Assembly: GCA_041749555.1 (NCBI GenBank)
Contig: JBGTBC010000338.1
Location: forward strand, 5,057-69,056
Source: Pyrinomonadaceae bacterium
GTDB lineage: Bacteria > Acidobacteriota > Blastocatellia > Pyrinomonadales > Pyrinomonadaceae
Direction: 5' to 3'
Length of the DNA stretch: 64,000 nt
A program made the translations under genes and the position numbers. Below the pieces are notes generated by a model. The model ran no database searches and was not told where the DNA came from. It saw only the letters and a program-made list of their open reading frames with translations. Shown piece after piece: positions 3,342-62,041 of this stretch. Positions within the stretch are counted from its first letter, which is position 1, and each line of letters opens with the position of its first letter.

Positions 3342-4517
3342 ATGGATACGTCCGTTCAACCCATACTGGATAAAGCACTCGATGGCGCGCGGTTGTCAGC
3401 CGAAGACTGCACCGCCTTGCTCGAATCACACGATTTCGTACGTATCGGCCTCGCAGCCGATGAGATCCGCCAACGAAGAAATCCGGGCGATGTTGTGACC
3501 TACATAATTGATCGCAATATCAATTATACCAACGTCTGCAACGTAGTTTGCACGTTCTGCGCATTCTATCGGCGACCCGGCAAACCGGACACGTACGTAC
3601 ATTCGATCGAGGAGATCTGTTCCCGCATTGACGAGACTATCGCTCTCGGCGGAACAGGCGTGCTGATGCAGGGCGGTCTGCATCCTGATTTTAATATCGA
3701 GTGGTATGAGGATTTGCTCTCGACGCTACACGCAAAGTATCCAAAATTTCAGCTCCACTGTTTTTCACCGCCAGAGATACACAATATTCACCTGATCAGC
3801 GGCCTCGATTACATGACCATAATGCAGCGGCTAAAGGATGCGGGTCTTAACTCTATGCCGGGCGGCGGCGGCGAGATCCTGGATGATGAGGTCCGTGCGA
3901 GAGTTTCGACCAAATGCGACACGCAAGAATGGCTCGACATAATGCGTGCCGTTCACAAGGTCGGTCTGATCTCGACCGCGACGATGATGTTTGGCATTGG
4001 AGACAAGATCGAGCACCGAGTCCGCCATCTCGAACGAATTCGGCAGGTGCAGGACGAAGCCCTTGCGAATAAAGCCGTCGATCCGAATTACGGCGAGTTC
4101 ACCGCCTTTATCCCGTGGACATTCCAACGCGAAAACACCGCCCTCGGCCGCAAGATCACCGAGGAACCGACAGGCATCGATTATTTAAAGATGCTTGCCG
4201 TTTCGCGTTTATTTTTAGATAACGTCCAGCACATCCAGGCATCATGGCTGACCCAAGGCCTCAAGCTCGGTCAGACAGCTCTTAGATTCGGCGCCGATGA
4301 CATGGGCTCCATCATGATCGAAGAAAACGTAGTCTCCGCCGCCGGAGCCGACAACCAGGCCAACGAAAGAGATCTCCGCTATCAGATCCGCGAAGCCGGT
4401 TTCGTTCCCCAACAAAGGGACATTCTTTATAACTACATTGATCGTCCTAACATCGGTGATGTAGATCAAAGCGACTCGATGAAGTTGAAACAGTTGACCG
4501 TCGCATTTGCGGATTAA
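3342..4517 (+). CDS. radical SAM menaquinone-biosynthesis enzyme, MqnC/MqnE family
   Basis: Contains DRNINYTNVCNVVCTFCAFYR (a CxxxCxxC cluster) and a GGTGVLMQGG motif; about 391 aa. I cannot separate MqnC from MqnE by eye. Start taken at the ATG at 3342. Confidence 0.8.
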   Translation: MDTSVQPILDKALDGARLSAEDCTALLESHDFVRIGLAADEIRQRRNPGDVVTYIIDRNINYTNVCNVVCTFCAFYRRPGKPDTYVHSIEEICSRIDETIALGGTGVLMQGGLHPDFNIEWYEDLLSTLHAKYPKFQLHCFSPPEIHNIHLISGLDYMTIMQRLKDAGLNSMPGGGGEILDDEVRARVSTKCDTQEWLDIMRAVHKVGLISTATMMFGIGDKIEHRVRHLERIRQVQDEALANKAVDPNYGEFTAFIPWTFQRENTALGRKITEEPTGIDYLKMLAVSRLFLDNVQHIQASWLTQGLKLGQTALRFGADDMGSIMIEENVVSAAGADNQANERDLRYQIREAGFVPQQRDILYNYIDRPNIGDVDQSDSMKLKQLTVAFAD

Positions 4518-24842: not shown

Positions 24843-25199
24843 CTAGCTATCGGTGGAGGCAAAACGGATTCTAGTTTCTGTGACGGTTAAAAACTGCCCC
24901 GGGAGTTTCTCACCGTAGTTTTCCAGAACTTGATTCAAAACAGTGATCTTATTTGATGACCGTTCGTTCGCAAGGCGTAGGAAGATCACTCCGTGATGGG
25001 GTCGGCGTTCGCGAAATATCATTTCGCCAAAATCCTTGTCATTGGTTATAAGTATCCAATTTTCATCAGAAGCTTTGGCTAATAGGTCGTCATCCGAGGT
25101 TCCGGCGGCGTTGTCAAACACCGAAAAAACCTCATGACCGAGGCCTTTCAACCATTTGGCGACCGCCGGGCCGGTACATTCGTCAACGAGAAAACGCAC
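24843..25199 (-). CDS. DUF5615 PIN-like protein (putative toxin of a DUF433/DUF5615 pair)
   Basis: Starts MRFLVDECTGPAVAKWL and contains ...ILITNDKDFGE; 118 aa. It directly abuts the upstream DUF433 gene. Confidence 0.75.
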   Translation of the reverse strand: MRFLVDECTGPAVAKWLKGLGHEVFSVFDNAAGTSDDDLLAKASDENWILITNDKDFGEMIFRERRPHHGVIFLRLANERSSNKITVLNQVLENYGEKLPGQFLTVTETRIRFASTDS

Positions 25200-25448
25200 T
25201 TAGGCAGGCTCCACGACAAGCGGCATAAATTCGGTTCGGCTTAAAGATTCGCCGGCGAAAAGGAGGCAGGCTTTGATATCGTCGGGGGTCAACCCGTCAT
25301 ACTCATCAAGGATCTCAGCGGTCGTTGCTCCGTGTGCCAATAGGTTAAGTATGAACTCCACAGAGAGCCGCGTTCCCTTTATGACAGGCTTACCCGCTAA
25401 GACCTTAGGGTCAAGAGTTATTCGTTTAAGAAGTTCCTGATCATTCAT
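25200..25448 (-). CDS. DUF433 domain protein (putative antitoxin)
   Basis: Contains ITLDPKVLAGKPVIKGTRLSVEFILNLLAHGATTAEILDEY, the canonical DUF433 pattern. Confidence 0.8.
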   Translation of the reverse strand: MNDQELLKRITLDPKVLAGKPVIKGTRLSVEFILNLLAHGATTAEILDEYDGLTPDDIKACLLFAGESLSRTEFMPLVVEPA

Positions 25449-25534: not shown

Positions 25535-27064
25535 ATGGAGCATCTTGATGTCCTCATCGTTGGAGCCGGACTTTCGGGGATCGGGGCTGGGGCTCGGGTG
25601 CGGATGGATTGTCCGGGGAAGACGTTTGCGATACTTGAGGGGCGGAACGCAAGCGGCGGGACTTGGGATCTGTTTCGATATCCGGGCGTGAGGTCGGATT
25701 CAGATATGTTCACGCTGGGCTATCGCTTCCGGCCATGGAGCGACCCGAAAGCCATCGCCGATGGGCCGGCGATACTGAACTACATCCGCGAGACCTCTAA
25801 AGAATATGACCTTGACAAGGAAATACGTTACAGGCATCGGGTAAAGCGGGCGGAGTGGAACTCCGCAGAGGCCCGGTGGACGGTCGAGGCTGAGGTCGCG
25901 GGTTTTGAGTCCCCGCTTCAGCGGGCCGCCGCGTCGGAACAAGATGCCTTGGGCCCAACGGAAAGCCGCCTGAAGGCGGGACTCAAAACGGTCTTTTTCA
26001 CTTGTGGTTTCCTTTATCTCTGCACCGGCTACTATGATTATGACGAGGGCTATACACCGGAATGGTCCGACTTCGAAAAATACACCGGCACGGTCGTTCA
26101 TCCGCAGAAATGGCCTACGGATCTCGACTACGCGGGTAAGAAAGTGCTCGTAATTGGCAGCGGTGCGACGGCCGTCACACTCGTGCCAGCGATGGCGGAA
26201 ACGGCAAAGCACGTAACTATGCTCCAGCGTTCGCCAACCTATATCGTAACCCTGCCTTCCGAGGATAGGATCGCGAATGTTTTACGAGCCATTCTGCCGG
26301 CTAAAGCGGCGTATGCTCTAACGCGTTGGAAAAACGTGCTGAGGCAGATGTTCTTTTACGAGCTCTCGCGAAGGCGTCCGTCTGTCATGAAACGGCTGAT
26401 CGCAAAAGGCGTCAGGAACGAGGTTGGCGACGAAATTGCCGAAAAGCACTTCAAGCCGAATTACAACCCGTGGGATCAACGATTGTGCGTTGTGCCGGAT
26501 TCCGATCTTTTCAAGTCGATCAAACGAGGCAGATCGTCGGTAATTACGAGCGAGATCCAGACGTTCACCGAGACAGGTGTTCGTCTGGTCAACGGAGAAG
26601 AACTCAATGCCGACATCATCGTCACGGCAACGGGCCTCGCGCTGAAGATAATGGCGGGTATGACGCTCGTCGTAGATGGCGAGACGGTCGATCTTTCGAC
26701 GAAGATCGCCTATAAGGGCATGATGTACAACGATGTGCCGAACCTGGCGCAGGCTTTCGGCTACACGAACGCTTCGTGGACCTTAAAATGCGACCTGACG
26801 AGCGAGTATGTGTGCCGGCTCATCAAGCATATGGATGCGAACGGCTATGCTAGCTGCACGCCGCGGCTAAACGACATGAGCATTACACCCGAACCGGTGC
26901 TCGATTTCAACTCCGGCTACGTCCTCCGAGCTCTGCATACACTCCCGAGCCAAGGCTCGAAAACTCCCTGGCGGCTGCATCAAAATTACGTTAAAGACCT
27001 CTCTATGCTTCGCTATGGACGGGTCGATGACGGTACTATGGAGTTTCGCCGCGGGGTGGAATAA
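25535..27064 (+). CDS. EthA-like FAD-containing (Baeyer-Villiger type) monooxygenase
   Basis: Contains DVLIVGAGLSGIGAG, GGTWDLFRYPGVRSDSDM, VIGSGATAVTLVP, HVTMLQRSPTYIV and YTNASWTLK. It is collinear with my recollection of M. tuberculosis EthA except for an insertion of about 30 aa (see the repeat at 25902-25989). Confidence 0.85.
   Translation: MEHLDVLIVGAGLSGIGAGARVRMDCPGKTFAILEGRNASGGTWDLFRYPGVRSDSDMFTLGYRFRPWSDPKAIADGPAILNYIRETSKEYDLDKEIRYRHRVKRAEWNSAEARWTVEAEVAGFESPLQRAAASEQDALGPTESRLKAGLKTVFFTCGFLYLCTGYYDYDEGYTPEWSDFEKYTGTVVHPQKWPTDLDYAGKKVLVIGSGATAVTLVPAMAETAKHVTMLQRSPTYIVTLPSEDRIANVLRAILPAKAAYALTRWKNVLRQMFFYELSRRRPSVMKRLIAKGVRNEVGDEIAEKHFKPNYNPWDQRLCVVPDSDLFKSIKRGRSSVITSEIQTFTETGVRLVNGEELNADIIVTATGLALKIMAGMTLVVDGETVDLSTKIAYKGMMYNDVPNLAQAFGYTNASWTLKCDLTSEYVCRLIKHMDANGYASCTPRLNDMSITPEPVLDFNSGYVLRALHTLPSQGSKTPWRLHQNYVKDLSMLRYGRVDDGTMEFRRGVE
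25902..25989. repeat. 88-bp palindromic REP/BIME- or MITE-like element, copy 1 (inside the monooxygenase CDS, in frame)
   Basis: The left arm is GTTTTGAGTCCCCGCTTCAGCGGGC. The reverse complement of the right arm is GTTTTGAGTCCCGCCTTCAGGCGGC. Each arm contains its own 5-bp stem with a TTCA/TGAA loop. A sibling copy lies at 61952-62041. Confidence 0.7.
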
Positions 27065-27966: not shown

Positions 27967-28953
27967 ATGCGTGACGAAATGATCATTGTGACAGGCGGTG
28001 CCGGCTTCATCGGCAGTGCCATCGTGTGGCGGCTAAACGAGCTCGGGTATGACGATATTATTATCGTCGACCGCATGGACGAGACCGACAAGTGGAAGAA
28101 TCTGGCTCCGCTCCGGTTTGAGGATGTAATTGATGCAGACCGATTCATGCTGGAGCTCGACGCTTACGATGATGCGTCCGCGCTGATCCACATGGGCGCG
28201 TGCTCGTCGACGACCGAGCGTGATGCGCGGTTCATGTTCAGTAATAACTATCGCTACACGACCGAATTGGCCGATTTCGTTCTTGAGAACGACATGCGAT
28301 TTATCTACGCTTCATCGGCCGCCACCTATGGCGACGGGTCGGTGGGGATGAATGATGCTATCGTCGATCTTCACAAACTTCGGCCGTTAAATCTTTATGG
28401 TTACTCCAAGCATCTATTCGACAAGTACGCGTCTCGCAACCGGATGTTTGACCGTATTGTAGGGCTCAAGTTTTTCAATGTTTTCGGCCCGAACGAAAAC
28501 CATAAGGGCGATATGCGTTCGCTGGTCAACAAGGCTTACGAGGAGATCAAAGAAACCGGTAAACTGCAGCTCTTCAGAAGTCATAATTCGGAATACGCCG
28601 ACGGCGAATTTGGACGCGATTTTATCTATGTCAAAGATGCGGTCGATATGACTCTGCATTTTTTGGAGAACGACTCGTGCGGGCTGTTCAATATTGGCTC
28701 GGGCCAAATGAACACTTGGAATTCGCTCGCCGATGCGATCTTTAAGGCGCTCGACCTGCCTCGCAATGTTGAGTTTATCGACATGCCCGAGCATCTTCGC
28801 GACCGTTATCAATACCACACCCAGGCCGACATTTCCCGCCTTCGTGAAACCGGTTATTCAGATAAGATCACGCCGCTTGAAGACGGGGTGGCCGATTACA
28901 TTCAGAATTATCTCGTGCCCGGCAAGCACCTAGGCGACGAAGACCCGTTTTAA
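27967..28953 (+). CDS. hldD: ADP-L-glycero-D-manno-heptose 6-epimerase
   Basis: Contains IIVTGGAGFIGS, LNLYGYSKHLFD and KFFNVFGPNE.HKG.M.S, a pattern typical of HldD/RfaD. The true start may be the ATG at 27979. Confidence 0.8.
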   Translation: MRDEMIIVTGGAGFIGSAIVWRLNELGYDDIIIVDRMDETDKWKNLAPLRFEDVIDADRFMLELDAYDDASALIHMGACSSTTERDARFMFSNNYRYTTELADFVLENDMRFIYASSAATYGDGSVGMNDAIVDLHKLRPLNLYGYSKHLFDKYASRNRMFDRIVGLKFFNVFGPNENHKGDMRSLVNKAYEEIKETGKLQLFRSHNSEYADGEFGRDFIYVKDAVDMTLHFLENDSCGLFNIGSGQMNTWNSLADAIFKALDLPRNVEFIDMPEHLRDRYQYHTQADISRLRETGYSDKITPLEDGVADYIQNYLVPGKHLGDEDPF

Positions 28954-28973
28954 GTCCTGCCTTCAGGCGGCGG
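28952..28973 (+). terminator. solo REP-like hairpin immediately after hldD (possible terminator or mRNA stabiliser)
   Basis: AAGTCCTGCCTTCAGGCGGC forms the stem CTGCC/GGCGG with a TTCA loop. It is nearly identical to the arms of the palindromic elements at 25902 and 61952. There is no clear T-run after it. Confidence 0.4.
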
Positions 28974-55514: not shown

Positions 55515-55829
55515 ATGAAAACATCCGCCACCGGCGAGGCAGATCCCGACACTGTGTTCCGCTATTTCCAGGACGGTGATATCGTGTGGGCTGACTATAG
55601 CGGCGGAGCGGTGAAAGCAGGCCACCTGATCGCGACCGTCGATGCTGAAGGCAACCTCGACATGCGGTACCACCACTTCAACTCATCTGGCGAGCTAATG
55701 ACAGGCATATGCCGTTCCACGCCCGAGGTCTTGGCCGACGGCCGGTTGCTTATGCATGAAAAGTGGCAATGGACCTCCGGTGACATGTCGACAGGCGAAT
55801 CACAGCTCGAAGAGATCTTACCAGCATAG
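55515..55829 (+). CDS. small conserved hypothetical protein (lipocalin-like beta-barrel pattern)
   Basis: Contains TVFRYFQDGDIVWADYSGGAVKAGHLIATVDAEGNLDMRYHHFN...WQWTSGDMSTGESQLEE. I have seen this family annotated only as hypothetical. Start taken at MKTSATG. Confidence 0.55.
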   Translation: MKTSATGEADPDTVFRYFQDGDIVWADYSGGAVKAGHLIATVDAEGNLDMRYHHFNSSGELMTGICRSTPEVLADGRLLMHEKWQWTSGDMSTGESQLEEILPA

Positions 55830-60708: not shown

Positions 60709-61917
60709 TTACCTGCCGCGTCTTGGCCCAAATGAACGAAAGCTTTTTCGTGCCGGCGTGGAAAATTTCTTTGCCGGCGCTGCCTGCGTAAACGTGTGGC
60801 CGCCGAAATCAGGCAGAACGATGCGTTCCACCCGTTCACCCGTCAGCCGCTCGATCGCCCGCATTGAATGCTCTTCTGCGATAGTAAACAGCGTAATGGC
60901 ACGCCCCTTGTTTCCTGCACGGCCGGTTCGGCCAATTCGGTGTACGTAATCCTCGGGTGCCTCGGGTATATCATAGTTTATCACATGTGACACCGAGTCG
61001 ATATCGATCCCGCGGGCGGCAACATCGGTAGCGATAAGCACGGTCGTGTGGCCGGACTTGAATGCTGCCAATGCAGACTCACGCTGTGACTGCGAACGGT
61101 CACCATGGATCCGGTTAGATTTATGCGAACGCTTTTCCAAAATATGTGCCAAACGGTCAGCACCTCGCTTGGTGCGTGTAAACACAAGTACGCGGTCGAA
61201 ATCTTCCTTATCCAACAGGTCCAGCAGCAGCGGCATTTTTGATTGCTGTGCAACCGGATACGCTGTTTGATGGATCAGGCCCGCGGCCTTTCCTCTCGGG
61301 CTGACCTCGATAAAGGTCGGATCCTTGAGCATCGCGTAAGCAATACGCTCGATCTCGGGCGACATTGTCGCTGAGAAAAAGAGTGTCTGGCGCTTTGCCG
61401 GAATAACCTTGACTATCCGCTTGATCGAGGGCAAAAAGCCCATATCGAGCATGCGGTCCGCCTCGTCGAGGACGAGATGGGTAAGGCTATTGAAATTGAT
61501 CAGGCCCTGGTCCATAAAGTCTATAAGACGGCCAGGCGTAGCAATTATCAAATTTGCTCCACGCCGCAGACTGTCCATCTGTCGTTTGTAACCGGCCCCA
61601 CCGATAATGGCGGTGCAGGTAATGCCCTTCGGGGCAAATTCGCGGCAAGCTGCCTCGGTCTGATTGGCAAGCTCGCGTGTCGGCGAAAGGACGAGAACTC
61701 TTGTTCCCGGTTTACCCTTGTTATCACCTAGAAGTTGTAAAATCGGCAGCAAAAAGGCCGCCGTCTTGCCGGTACCGGTCTCGGCACTGGCTAAAATGTC
61801 TCCGCCCTTTAAAAGGACCGGAATCGCCTGTTTTTGAATGGGTGTAGGCTCGGTAAAACCCAGTTGCTCGCACTTTTCCGTGAAAAACGGAAGCAAGCCT
61901 AAATCGCTAAAAGTCAT
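60709..61917 (-). CDS. DEAD-box ATP-dependent RNA helicase (RhlE-like)
   Basis: Contains the Q-motif F..LGL...F.EPTPIQ, plus AETGTGKT, DEADRMLDMGF, SAT and HRIGRTGRAG, with a basic C-terminal tail. Confidence 0.9.
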   Translation of the reverse strand: MTFSDLGLLPFFTEKCEQLGFTEPTPIQKQAIPVLLKGGDILASAETGTGKTAAFLLPILQLLGDNKGKPGTRVLVLSPTRELANQTEAACREFAPKGITCTAIIGGAGYKRQMDSLRRGANLIIATPGRLIDFMDQGLINFNSLTHLVLDEADRMLDMGFLPSIKRIVKVIPAKRQTLFFSATMSPEIERIAYAMLKDPTFIEVSPRGKAAGLIHQTAYPVAQQSKMPLLLDLLDKEDFDRVLVFTRTKRGADRLAHILEKRSHKSNRIHGDRSQSQRESALAAFKSGHTTVLIATDVAARGIDIDSVSHVINYDIPEAPEDYVHRIGRTGRAGNKGRAITLFTIAEEHSMRAIERLTGERVERIVLPDFGGHTFTQAAPAKKFSTPARKSFRSFGPRRGR

Positions 61918-61951: not shown

Positions 61952-62041
61952 GTTCAGAGTCCCTGCTTCAGCAGGCCGCGGATCGCAGTATGCGATCAGA
62001 CCTACCACATGGGATCGCCGCCTAAAGGCGGTACTCCAAAC
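61952..62041. repeat. 90-bp palindromic REP/BIME- or MITE-like element, copy 2 (35 bp upstream of the helicase start codon)
   Basis: The left arm is GTTCAGAGTCCCTGCTTCAGCAGGC. The reverse complement of the right arm is GTTTGGAGTACCGCCTTTAGGCGGC. The architecture matches 25902-25989. The interior contains the hairpin GATCGCA-gta-TGCGATC. Confidence 0.65.

Follow-up and report, generated by a model that had tools for sequence, protein, structure and literature searches.

In a 64,000-nucleotide stretch of DNA from a Pyrinomonadaceae bacterium (hereafter the window), the gene located at 25535..27064 on the plus strand encodes a monooxygenase of 509 amino acids, and within its reading frame lies a palindromic element of 88 nt (25902..25989, no strand assigned), which is the subject of the present analysis. 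The gene product is a type I Baeyer-Villiger/flavin monooxygenase. It matches the Pfam FMO-like family PF00743 and, in the PDB, solved Baeyer-Villiger monooxygenases (BVMOs) are its best sequence matches. Rossmann motifs are present at residues 10-15 (GAGLSG) and 208-213 (GSGATA), and the fingerprint FxGxxxHxxxW[PD] is matched by YTGTVVHPQKWP at residues 183-194 except for the presence of Y in place of F. An AlphaFold2 model of the protein (pLDDT 82.5, pTM 0.82) was found by Foldseek to resemble the steroid, cyclohexanone and phenylacetone monooxygenases with a TM score of ~0.7. The initial annotation, which was made from the sequence alone, had called the gene EthA-like; Pfam, the motifs and Foldseek agree with this name as far as the type I BVMO/FMO class, and to that level only. 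Homologues at 72-80% identity all belong to Pyrinomonadaceae and related Acidobacteriota, and synteny is kept around the orthologues, which follow deoxyhypusine synthase and precede FAD synthetase and UbiB.

The element consists of two inverted arms of 25 nt each, which are 84% complementary and 38 nt apart, and it begins at the second position of codon 123 and ends at the second position of codon 152. Each arm is built of a 10-nt tag (GTTTTGAGTC), a perfect 5-bp G+C stem, a TTCA loop, the stem partner and a final C. The left arm (25902..25926, plus strand) reads GTTTTGAGTC CCCGC TTCA GCGGG C, with the rarer stem variant CCCGC/GCGGG, and is translated as (G)FESPLQRA. The right arm (25965..25989, minus strand) reads GTTTTGAGTC CCGCC TTCA GGCGG C on its own strand, with the stem CCGCC/GGCGG; it is identical to the family consensus described below and its plus-strand reading is SRLKAGLKT. 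The locus-specific spacer of 38 nt between them (25927..25964, plus strand) is translated as AASEQDALGPTE. Codons 123-152 together read GFESPLQRAAASEQDALGPTESRLKAGLKT and are free of stops. The inverted repeat with its 5-bp stems and TTCA loops is present inside the open reading frame (ORF) just as initially described. The 88-nt doublet is predicted to fold into a long hairpin, both as RNA (-48.6 kcal/mol, z -2.8) and as DNA (-27.9 kcal/mol, z -3.3), and the minimum-free-energy fold of the window copy favours a long arm-to-arm helix. In the window the 12-nt arm end is found twice, 0.23 occurrences being expected, and a structural search of the window recovered five true arms as compared to an average of 0.7 in a shuffled window. 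A sixth candidate arm, at 55783, was found on inspection to be a false positive. Scans of the window with Rfam (gathering threshold) and for tRNAs gave no matches.

The initial annotation had proposed that the element was inserted in frame and forms an extra loop of the monooxygenase, with an alignment of homologues and a structure model as suitable checks, and both bear this out. The window protein has 38 residues between the conserved RWTV and TC motifs, the number counted earlier, whereas the WTV-TC interval comprises only 12-13 residues in six distant homologues and one orthologue. Outgroup homologues from other taxa (57-60% identity) lack the segment and have, for example, WTVEAERGEAREIVRYTC between WTV and TC, and the syntenic orthologue L002 (fetched loci carry the prefix L), which is also without the element, has WTVEAETGPDHEVARFTC at this place. 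Since the element encodes 30 residues but the loop is only 25-26 longer, some native codons must have disappeared or been remodelled where the element joins the gene. The model pairs strand 114-122 with strand 150-162, and residues 125-148, corresponding to the middle of the element peptide, are the only long stretch with pLDDT <50. As modelled, the element sits at the tip of a beta-hairpin, which is tight and of 13 residues in the outgroups and the one orthologue, and extends its turn into a disordered loop on the protein surface.

The arms belong to a dispersed family, as initially claimed. Our family counts are based on a scan with the exact pattern TTTTGAGTCCCNNCTTCAGNNGGC, taking one genome per species, which listed at least 115 stretches totalling 806 kb. 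The label is Acidobacteriota, Pyrinomonadaceae, Blastocatellia or Chloracidobacterium in 114 of these listed stretches and 'uncultured bacterium' in one, while 235 kb of homologue loci from outside subdivision 4 contain two relaxed arm matches. As far as sampled, the arm sequences thus appear confined to subdivision-4 Acidobacteriota, i.e. Pyrinomonadaceae and their relatives. Complete chromosomes among the listed matches, which include OZ252004.1, OZ252034.1, OY970060.1 and OY970352.1, are 4.75-5.4 Mb in size. The listed stretches contain 228 arms, which form 81 convergent doublets with 66 arms remaining outside doublets. Spacers in these doublets range from 3 to 117 nt, clustering at ~18, 28, 42 and 90 nt, and the overall length of the doublets is 60-140 nt. 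The spacers are locus-specific: BLAST matches to that of the monooxygenase are confined to monooxygenase loci, and the interiors of similarly long doublets bear no relation to each other. No target-site duplication was found: for flanking direct repeats of 3-8 nt, matches number 4, 3, 1, 0 and 0 of 81 doublets. In the flanks only an A before and a T after the doublet are enriched, which lengthens the palindrome by one base. In the genome bin JANNYB01 (L017, L018, L020, L021, L033, L034, L042, L072, L082 and others), doublets with spacers of ~90 nt carry a nested palindromic module (AACCGCCAGCGAAGCGAAGCGGTT-like) at both ends of the spacer, which suggests a composite subfamily resembling bacterial interspersed mosaic elements (BIMEs).

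The hairpin of the single arm is well supported by covariation. For this test 101 distinct arms were selected by requiring the tag and a TTYA loop and leaving the stem unconstrained; selection by the tag alone (9/10 matches) was discarded, as it drew in many unrelated sequences. The consensus tag of the 101 arms is GTTTTGAGTC. Pairing is observed in 90.5% of the cells as compared to 65.1% in shuffles, none of 500 shuffles reaching the observed value, and slid registers give 21-63% pairing. Cells in which both partners have changed number 107 against 31 in shuffles, and all five pairs covary. The two arms differ in their stems in 37 of 71 doublets and each stem nevertheless remains self-complementary, which argues that the conserved structure is the hairpin of the single arm and not the long arm-to-arm helix.

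A search for a transposase of the RAYT (REP-associated tyrosine transposase, REP standing for repetitive extragenic palindrome) or IS200-like type had been suggested in the initial annotation. Using E. coli RayT as query against all fetched loci, we identified a RAYT-like Y1 gene in three related genomes, as orthologous ORFs of 200 aa (L018 1813-2415; L043 1763-2365; L053 6676-7278). These ORFs match Pfam Y1_Tnp with 28 bits (cut-off 23), contain an HUH motif (NHYHV) and a Y..NPV.HGY motif, and have TnpA-REP (4er8) as their sole, weak, match in the PDB. Arms of the family bracket the gene within ~60 nt on both sides in each of the three genomes, and in two of them an arm overlaps the stop codon of the gene. 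By our estimate, a single-copy gene would be met ~0.2 times in 115 random 8-kb blocks of 5-Mb genomes, as compared to the three times seen here. L043 and the element-bearing orthologue L001 are part of one genome bin, where in-frame copies are also present in genes for a tRNA synthetase, kynureninase and an FAD monooxygenase. Homologues of the RAYT-like protein in the protein database number 904, nearly all of them 194-204 aa long, and those with named sources come from Pyrinomonadaceae or Acidobacteriota. Nearly every cluster of these proteins at 90% identity lies on a single contig, and many contigs carrying the homologues P0123-P0242 are only ~1 kb in length. Assemblies probably break at the repeats flanking the gene, and the repeat family is therefore likely to be under-represented in genome bins.

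Insertion into coding sequence is not restricted to the monooxygenase. Of the three frames of the consensus arm, a single one is closed by a stop (G TTT TGA on the tag side; GCC GCC TGA on the other side), and its open readings are VLSPAFRR or FESRLQAA and PPEGGTQN or RLKAGLKT. In the closed frame an arm can provide the stop codon of a gene, as does the solo arm of the window described below. Based on the loci matched by the pattern, ~20 of ~147 sampled elements (~14%, among the matches listed) lie in frame and well inside long ORFs; in-frame colonisation, initially considered rare, is not so for this family. A Pfam scan of 20 such host ORFs returned matches to the host protein in 17. The hosts include HypF, in which the copy separates the zinc fingers from the YrdC domain, alpha-2-macroglobulin, a class I aminoacyl-tRNA synthetase, an FAD monooxygenase, M14 and M28 peptidases, a cupin, a Mur ligase, an acyltransferase, PGI, APH and 2-oxoglutarate dehydrogenase. 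Two hosts recur in several genomes, namely XdhC (two genomes) and kynureninase, for which three genes (L011:6982-7998; L085:1363-2775; L099:5000-6376) carry a doublet of 30 residues at the same site. Predicted tryptic peptides from the element readings include AAASEQDALGPTESR and others spanning PPEGGTQN. A profile of the two readings encoded in the window, compared with 1.84 billion representative proteins, gave two matches, neither of which shows the element peptides, and a composite peptide query of 45 aa shared no words with the large protein databases. Our literature search turned up neither this arm sequence nor these peptides in any paper, and no paper that ties such repeats to these taxa.

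The window holds two further copies. A sibling doublet in intergenic DNA (61952..62041, no strand assigned; arms at 61952-61976 and 62017-62041), which the initial annotation had reported and which is real, has a spacer of 40 nt unrelated to that of the monooxygenase. A DEAD-box helicase ORF (60709..61917, minus strand) starts 35 nt downstream of this doublet, which thus occupies a 5' leader or promoter region, not a position downstream of a gene. A solo arm had been reported at 28952-28973; it exists, and we place it at 28947..28971 on the plus strand, where it reads GTTTTAAGTC CTGCC TTCA GGCGG C. This arm overlaps the end of an epimerase ORF (27967..28953), and its TAA (28951-28953), which replaces the consensus TGA, is the epimerase stop codon. 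At the matching position in L179 an arm is located 4 nt past the native stop, and L001 and L119 have no arm there. Directly upstream of the monooxygenase, at 24843-25448 on the minus strand, two adjacent ORFs, one of DUF5615/PIN_10 and one of DUF433, together resemble a toxin-antitoxin module. In other genomes this slot is occupied by different small genes or by none, and in L181 deoxyhypusine synthase abuts the monooxygenase.

The age of the monooxygenase copy can be approached from its orthologues. In the DNA of nine syntenic orthologues the 38-nt spacer length, a homologous spacer and the rare left stem CCCG(C/T)/GCGGG are all shared, and these common features point to a single origin of the insertion. 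Independent insertions at this site are rejected for the monooxygenase, since the 38-nt spacer is of equal length and homologous among carriers and is absent elsewhere. Among pairs of codons encoding the same residue in the orthologues, the fraction of identical codons is 0.88 in the left arm and 0.90 in the right arm, as compared to 0.61 in the spacer and 0.52 in the gene; the maximum over 446 other 9-codon windows of the monooxygenase is 0.71. The nucleotide identity of the spacer among the orthologues is 0.57 against 0.75 for the gene and, as it lies below that of the gene, the arms are not simply younger than the gene. A similar picture is seen for kynureninase in its three genomes, where the fraction is 0.90 and 0.92 in the arms against 0.50, from 19-24 codon pairs per arm, with a spacer nucleotide identity of 0.43. 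We infer from these comparisons that the tag, stem and loop of intragenic arms are under constraint at the nucleotide level.

The peptide of the element is found at the same place in 24 of 120 close homologues, and the same turn holds other sequences in the non-carriers, such as DLPQSRKDAKE, AETRPVGSV, SSPHVSKGS, NWPPADAGGSD and SPQRRGDAE, the DNA motifs of which recur elsewhere in the sampled genomes. Other repeat families are present in frame in the same monooxygenase loop (L118:1029-2813, L119:2202-3857, L129 and L131), where they encode KPAREQGR/SPHVSKG, AETRPVGSV, NWPPA(D/Y)AGGSD, SPQRRGDAE or three tandem copies of LTQSRKDAKEE. Motifs of the loop DNA that recur in unrelated loci are GCAGAAACACGACCGGTAGGGAGTGTG (L019, L031, L116) and AGCCCGCACGTTAGTAAGGGC (L023, L031, L091). 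Non-carrier loops such as ERRGDAG were also considered as frameshifted readings of the element, which was rejected as their DNA is unrelated. The right arm itself has been amplified in tandem as identical in-frame copies (...GRLKAGLKTTDEGRLKAGLKT...) with a period of 36 nt, three in L120 (~4064-4160) and two in L121/L122. Judged from these sequences, the tip of the hairpin is a hot spot where repeats are gained, amplified and swapped with fast turnover.

We consider it highly probable that the 88-nt segment is a REP-type doublet, similar to a REPIN (a REP doublet forming a hairpin) or a BIME, that was mobilised by a RAYT and of which an old copy is now translated as a loop of the monooxygenase. 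The mobile unit would be the arm of 25 nt, in which the 10-nt tag GTTTTGAGTC is followed by the 5-bp hairpin, and the arm would be recognised as a single-stranded DNA hairpin by the 200-aa HUH/Y1 transposase; RAYT-mediated mobility of the arms is the probable source of the dispersed copies. One doublet would have landed once, long ago, at the tip of the beta-hairpin in the FAD-binding domain of the BVMO. As the arm has a stop in one of three frames only, the added length is a whole number of codons and the site is a surface turn, the gene stayed open, the element being translated as a loop of 30 residues which is disordered in the model and which the enzyme seems to tolerate. Later on, the monooxygenase copy would have been inherited and/or exchanged among the orthologues, with its arms constrained at the nucleotide level and its spacer drifting. 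Several observations weigh against this reading. The GTAG or CGTC sequence beside the stem is absent on either strand of the arm, and the spacers are not conserved between copies, unlike those of Pseudomonas REPINs. The 200-aa ORFs score just under the curated cut-off of NCBIfam REP_Tyr_transpos (75.8 bits against 80; E 3e-21). No RAYT-like gene is present in the 64-kb window, the link to the transposase being drawn from related genomes. The arms recur widely, the point that a genome-wide count proposed in the initial annotation was to establish, but their number, drawn from the matches listed, is a rough estimate (~30-80 arms/Mb; tens to a few hundred per genome). Finally, with the loop masked, the carriers of the element form no clade by nearest-neighbour and average-linkage tests, their mean identity being 0.771 among themselves and 0.772 with non-carriers; for several carriers the closest relative, at 89-96% identity, is a non-carrier. 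Simple vertical descent from one insertion is an incomplete account of this distribution.

Two alternatives concern the nature of the segment itself. The initial annotation had called it REP/MITE-like, of which the REP part stands and the MITE part does not. A miniature inverted-repeat transposable element (MITE), i.e. an insertion sequence shortened by deletion that keeps terminal inverted repeats and is moved by a DDE transposase which makes target-site duplications, would account for the two inverted ends and the short overall length, and a 2-nt match between the flanks, seen in 14 of 81 doublets against ~5 expected, could be taken for a trace of such duplication. However, this excess consists of the A at -1 and the T at +1 that extend the palindrome, and duplications of at least 3 nt are only a handful. 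The unrelated interiors of the copies, the common occurrence of solo arms (66 of 228) and the covarying hairpin formed by every arm also disagree with a MITE, and the sole transposase seen beside the arms is of the Y1/RAYT type, with no parent insertion sequence seen. As the Y1 gene is flanked by arms in the REPtron arrangement and target-site duplications are missing, we regard a MITE as ruled out, save for a very slight residual probability. Still less credible, to the point of being negligible, is an ancestral or functional protein loop in which the palindromic DNA and the similar sequences elsewhere are coincidental. The carriage of the same peptide at the same place by 24 of 120 close homologues speaks for it, and this is literally the observation which the initial annotation had named as a sign of an ancestral loop. 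Yet the genomes of these carriers hold the repeat family and the segment shows the anatomy of the repeat, which argues for an old insertion instead. Moreover, the outgroups and L002 are without the segment, the same arms are found in intergenic DNA and in >15 unrelated proteins, no structure is predicted for the segment, and the conservation of its conserved parts extends to synonymous sites, in contrast to the drifting middle of the peptide.

The remaining alternatives bear on how the copy, once inserted, came to be distributed and conserved. It is possible, though we think it the less likely course, that the loop moves as a 'cassette' between lineages of Pyrinomonadaceae by homologous recombination through its conserved flanks, the window's genome having received it neither by transposition into its own gene nor by plain vertical descent. 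Such exchange would account for the scatter of loop content over the gene tree: carriers are mixed in among non-carriers (the carrier P0006 is 95.7% identical to the non-carrier P0048 outside the loop, and similar pairs exist at 89-94%), and close relatives hold wholly different repeats between identical anchor codons. In addition, identity between carriers exceeds that between carriers and non-carriers only within ~30 residues on either side of the loop (0.83 vs 0.78; 0.75 vs 0.69). This excess in the flanks is small, however, and a similar pattern would result from repeated loss or replacement of the ancestral copy by later insertions and deletions. As for the cause of the arm constraint, homogenisation in place of selection on function, either by gene conversion from other copies or by hairpin-templated correction of the quasi-palindrome, is an explanation we hold to be somewhat more doubtful than cassette exchange. 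Variation among orthologous arms falls on the same positions (4-5 of the tag; loop TTCA/TTTA) as variation across the family, and the stems stay self-complementary as templated correction would give. Hairpin-templated repair, on the other hand, cannot preserve the unpaired tag and loop. The rare left stem CCCGC/GCGGG, found in only 5-6 of ~200 arms, has been kept in 9 of 9 orthologue DNAs and, at the peptide level, in ~24 proteins without being converted to CCGCC/GGCGG, and its persistence makes conversion from other copies less likely. That the intragenic arms are kept by selection at the level of the host strikes us as improbable; they would then serve as mRNA or single-stranded DNA hairpins (in stability, translation pausing or protein binding) or as landing pads for a domesticated RAYT swapping loop cassettes. 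If the landing-pad version were true, Pyrinomonadaceae would possess a generator of protein-loop diversity, and the tip in the monooxygenase, where close relatives carry at least five repeat families, would be an example.

With a REP-type doublet as the preferred reading, the orthologous copies make two questions testable, namely whether intragenic REPs are tolerated or maintained, and how surface loops gain and exchange sequence. In practical terms, the repeats add recurring peptides (VLSPAFRR...PPEGGTQN, FESRLQAA...RLKAGLKT) to many annotated proteins and probably break assemblies. To our knowledge, REP-RAYT systems have been studied almost entirely in Proteobacteria, and palindromic repeats that frequently colonise genes in frame have been described mainly in Rickettsia, usually in connection with reductive evolution. 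Here, a comparable in-frame habit is seen, together with a candidate transposase, in soil Acidobacteriota that are abundant and free-living and have genomes of ~5 Mb, and orthologous intragenic copies are available in many metagenome assemblies.

Compared with known systems, the family is most like the REP/BIME/REPIN-RAYT systems of E. coli and Pseudomonas fluorescens, with which it shares short hairpin units with a conserved 5' tag, frequent inverted doublets, and a dispersed and lineage-restricted occurrence. It also shares with them the lack of target-site duplication and a small HUH/Y1 gene bracketed by the repeats (REPtron), conserved at ~200 aa. A REPIN in the strict sense is reportedly, following Bertels and Rainey, the entire doublet, spacer included, as the replicated unit; the acidobacterial doublets with their unrelated spacers do not agree with this definition of a wholly replicated and conserved doublet. 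They further differ by their tag (GTTTTGAGTC in place of GTAG/CGTC), a stem of 5 bp, locus-specific spacers and their phylum, Acidobacteriota. Classical REPs are almost all extragenic, in contrast to the ~14% of sampled acidobacterial copies in frame inside genes. The REP superfamilies described so far carry a GTAG or CGTC tag (PMC3733652). Singles and dimers of these REPs have been found by Di Nocera et al. (2013) inside coding regions of Opitutus terrae, Thauera and others, where they encode 20-30 residues, also in tRNA synthetase genes, and these authors concluded that such insertions are tolerated and not functional (PMC3733652). The acidobacterial copies differ from these in tag class and phylum, and in being comparable between orthologues, which reveals the synonymous conservation of the arms and the turnover of several families in one loop.

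Similarity to the Rickettsia palindromic elements (RPEs) lies in the in-frame presence of the repeat in many unrelated and apparently functional genes, the recurring peptide and the fold-compatible sites (PMC10969869; PMC3733652). There is no sequence relationship between the two, and RPE-1, of ~100-150 bp, has a conserved interior. RPE hosts are obligate intracellular bacteria with reduced genomes, whereas the acidobacterial hosts live freely in soil and a candidate transposase has been identified in them. The acidobacterial element behaves like an RPE without being a member of the RPE family. Bacterial MITEs (Correia/NEMIS, ERIC, RUP, Nezha) resemble it as small non-autonomous repeats with inverted ends and occasional in-frame fusions, but they have a conserved interior, target-site duplications and a parent DDE insertion sequence, none of which is seen in the acidobacterial family. 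Intragenic REPs and RPEs as a kind are thus already known. What is new is a REP-type family with a RAYT-like transposase in subdivision-4 Acidobacteriota, an in-frame fraction of ~14% in free-living bacteria, a loop that is a hot spot for several repeat families, and the synonymous conservation of the arms, which vary less at synonymous sites than any other part of the gene next to a drifting spacer, a feature not reported for the earlier cases compared here.

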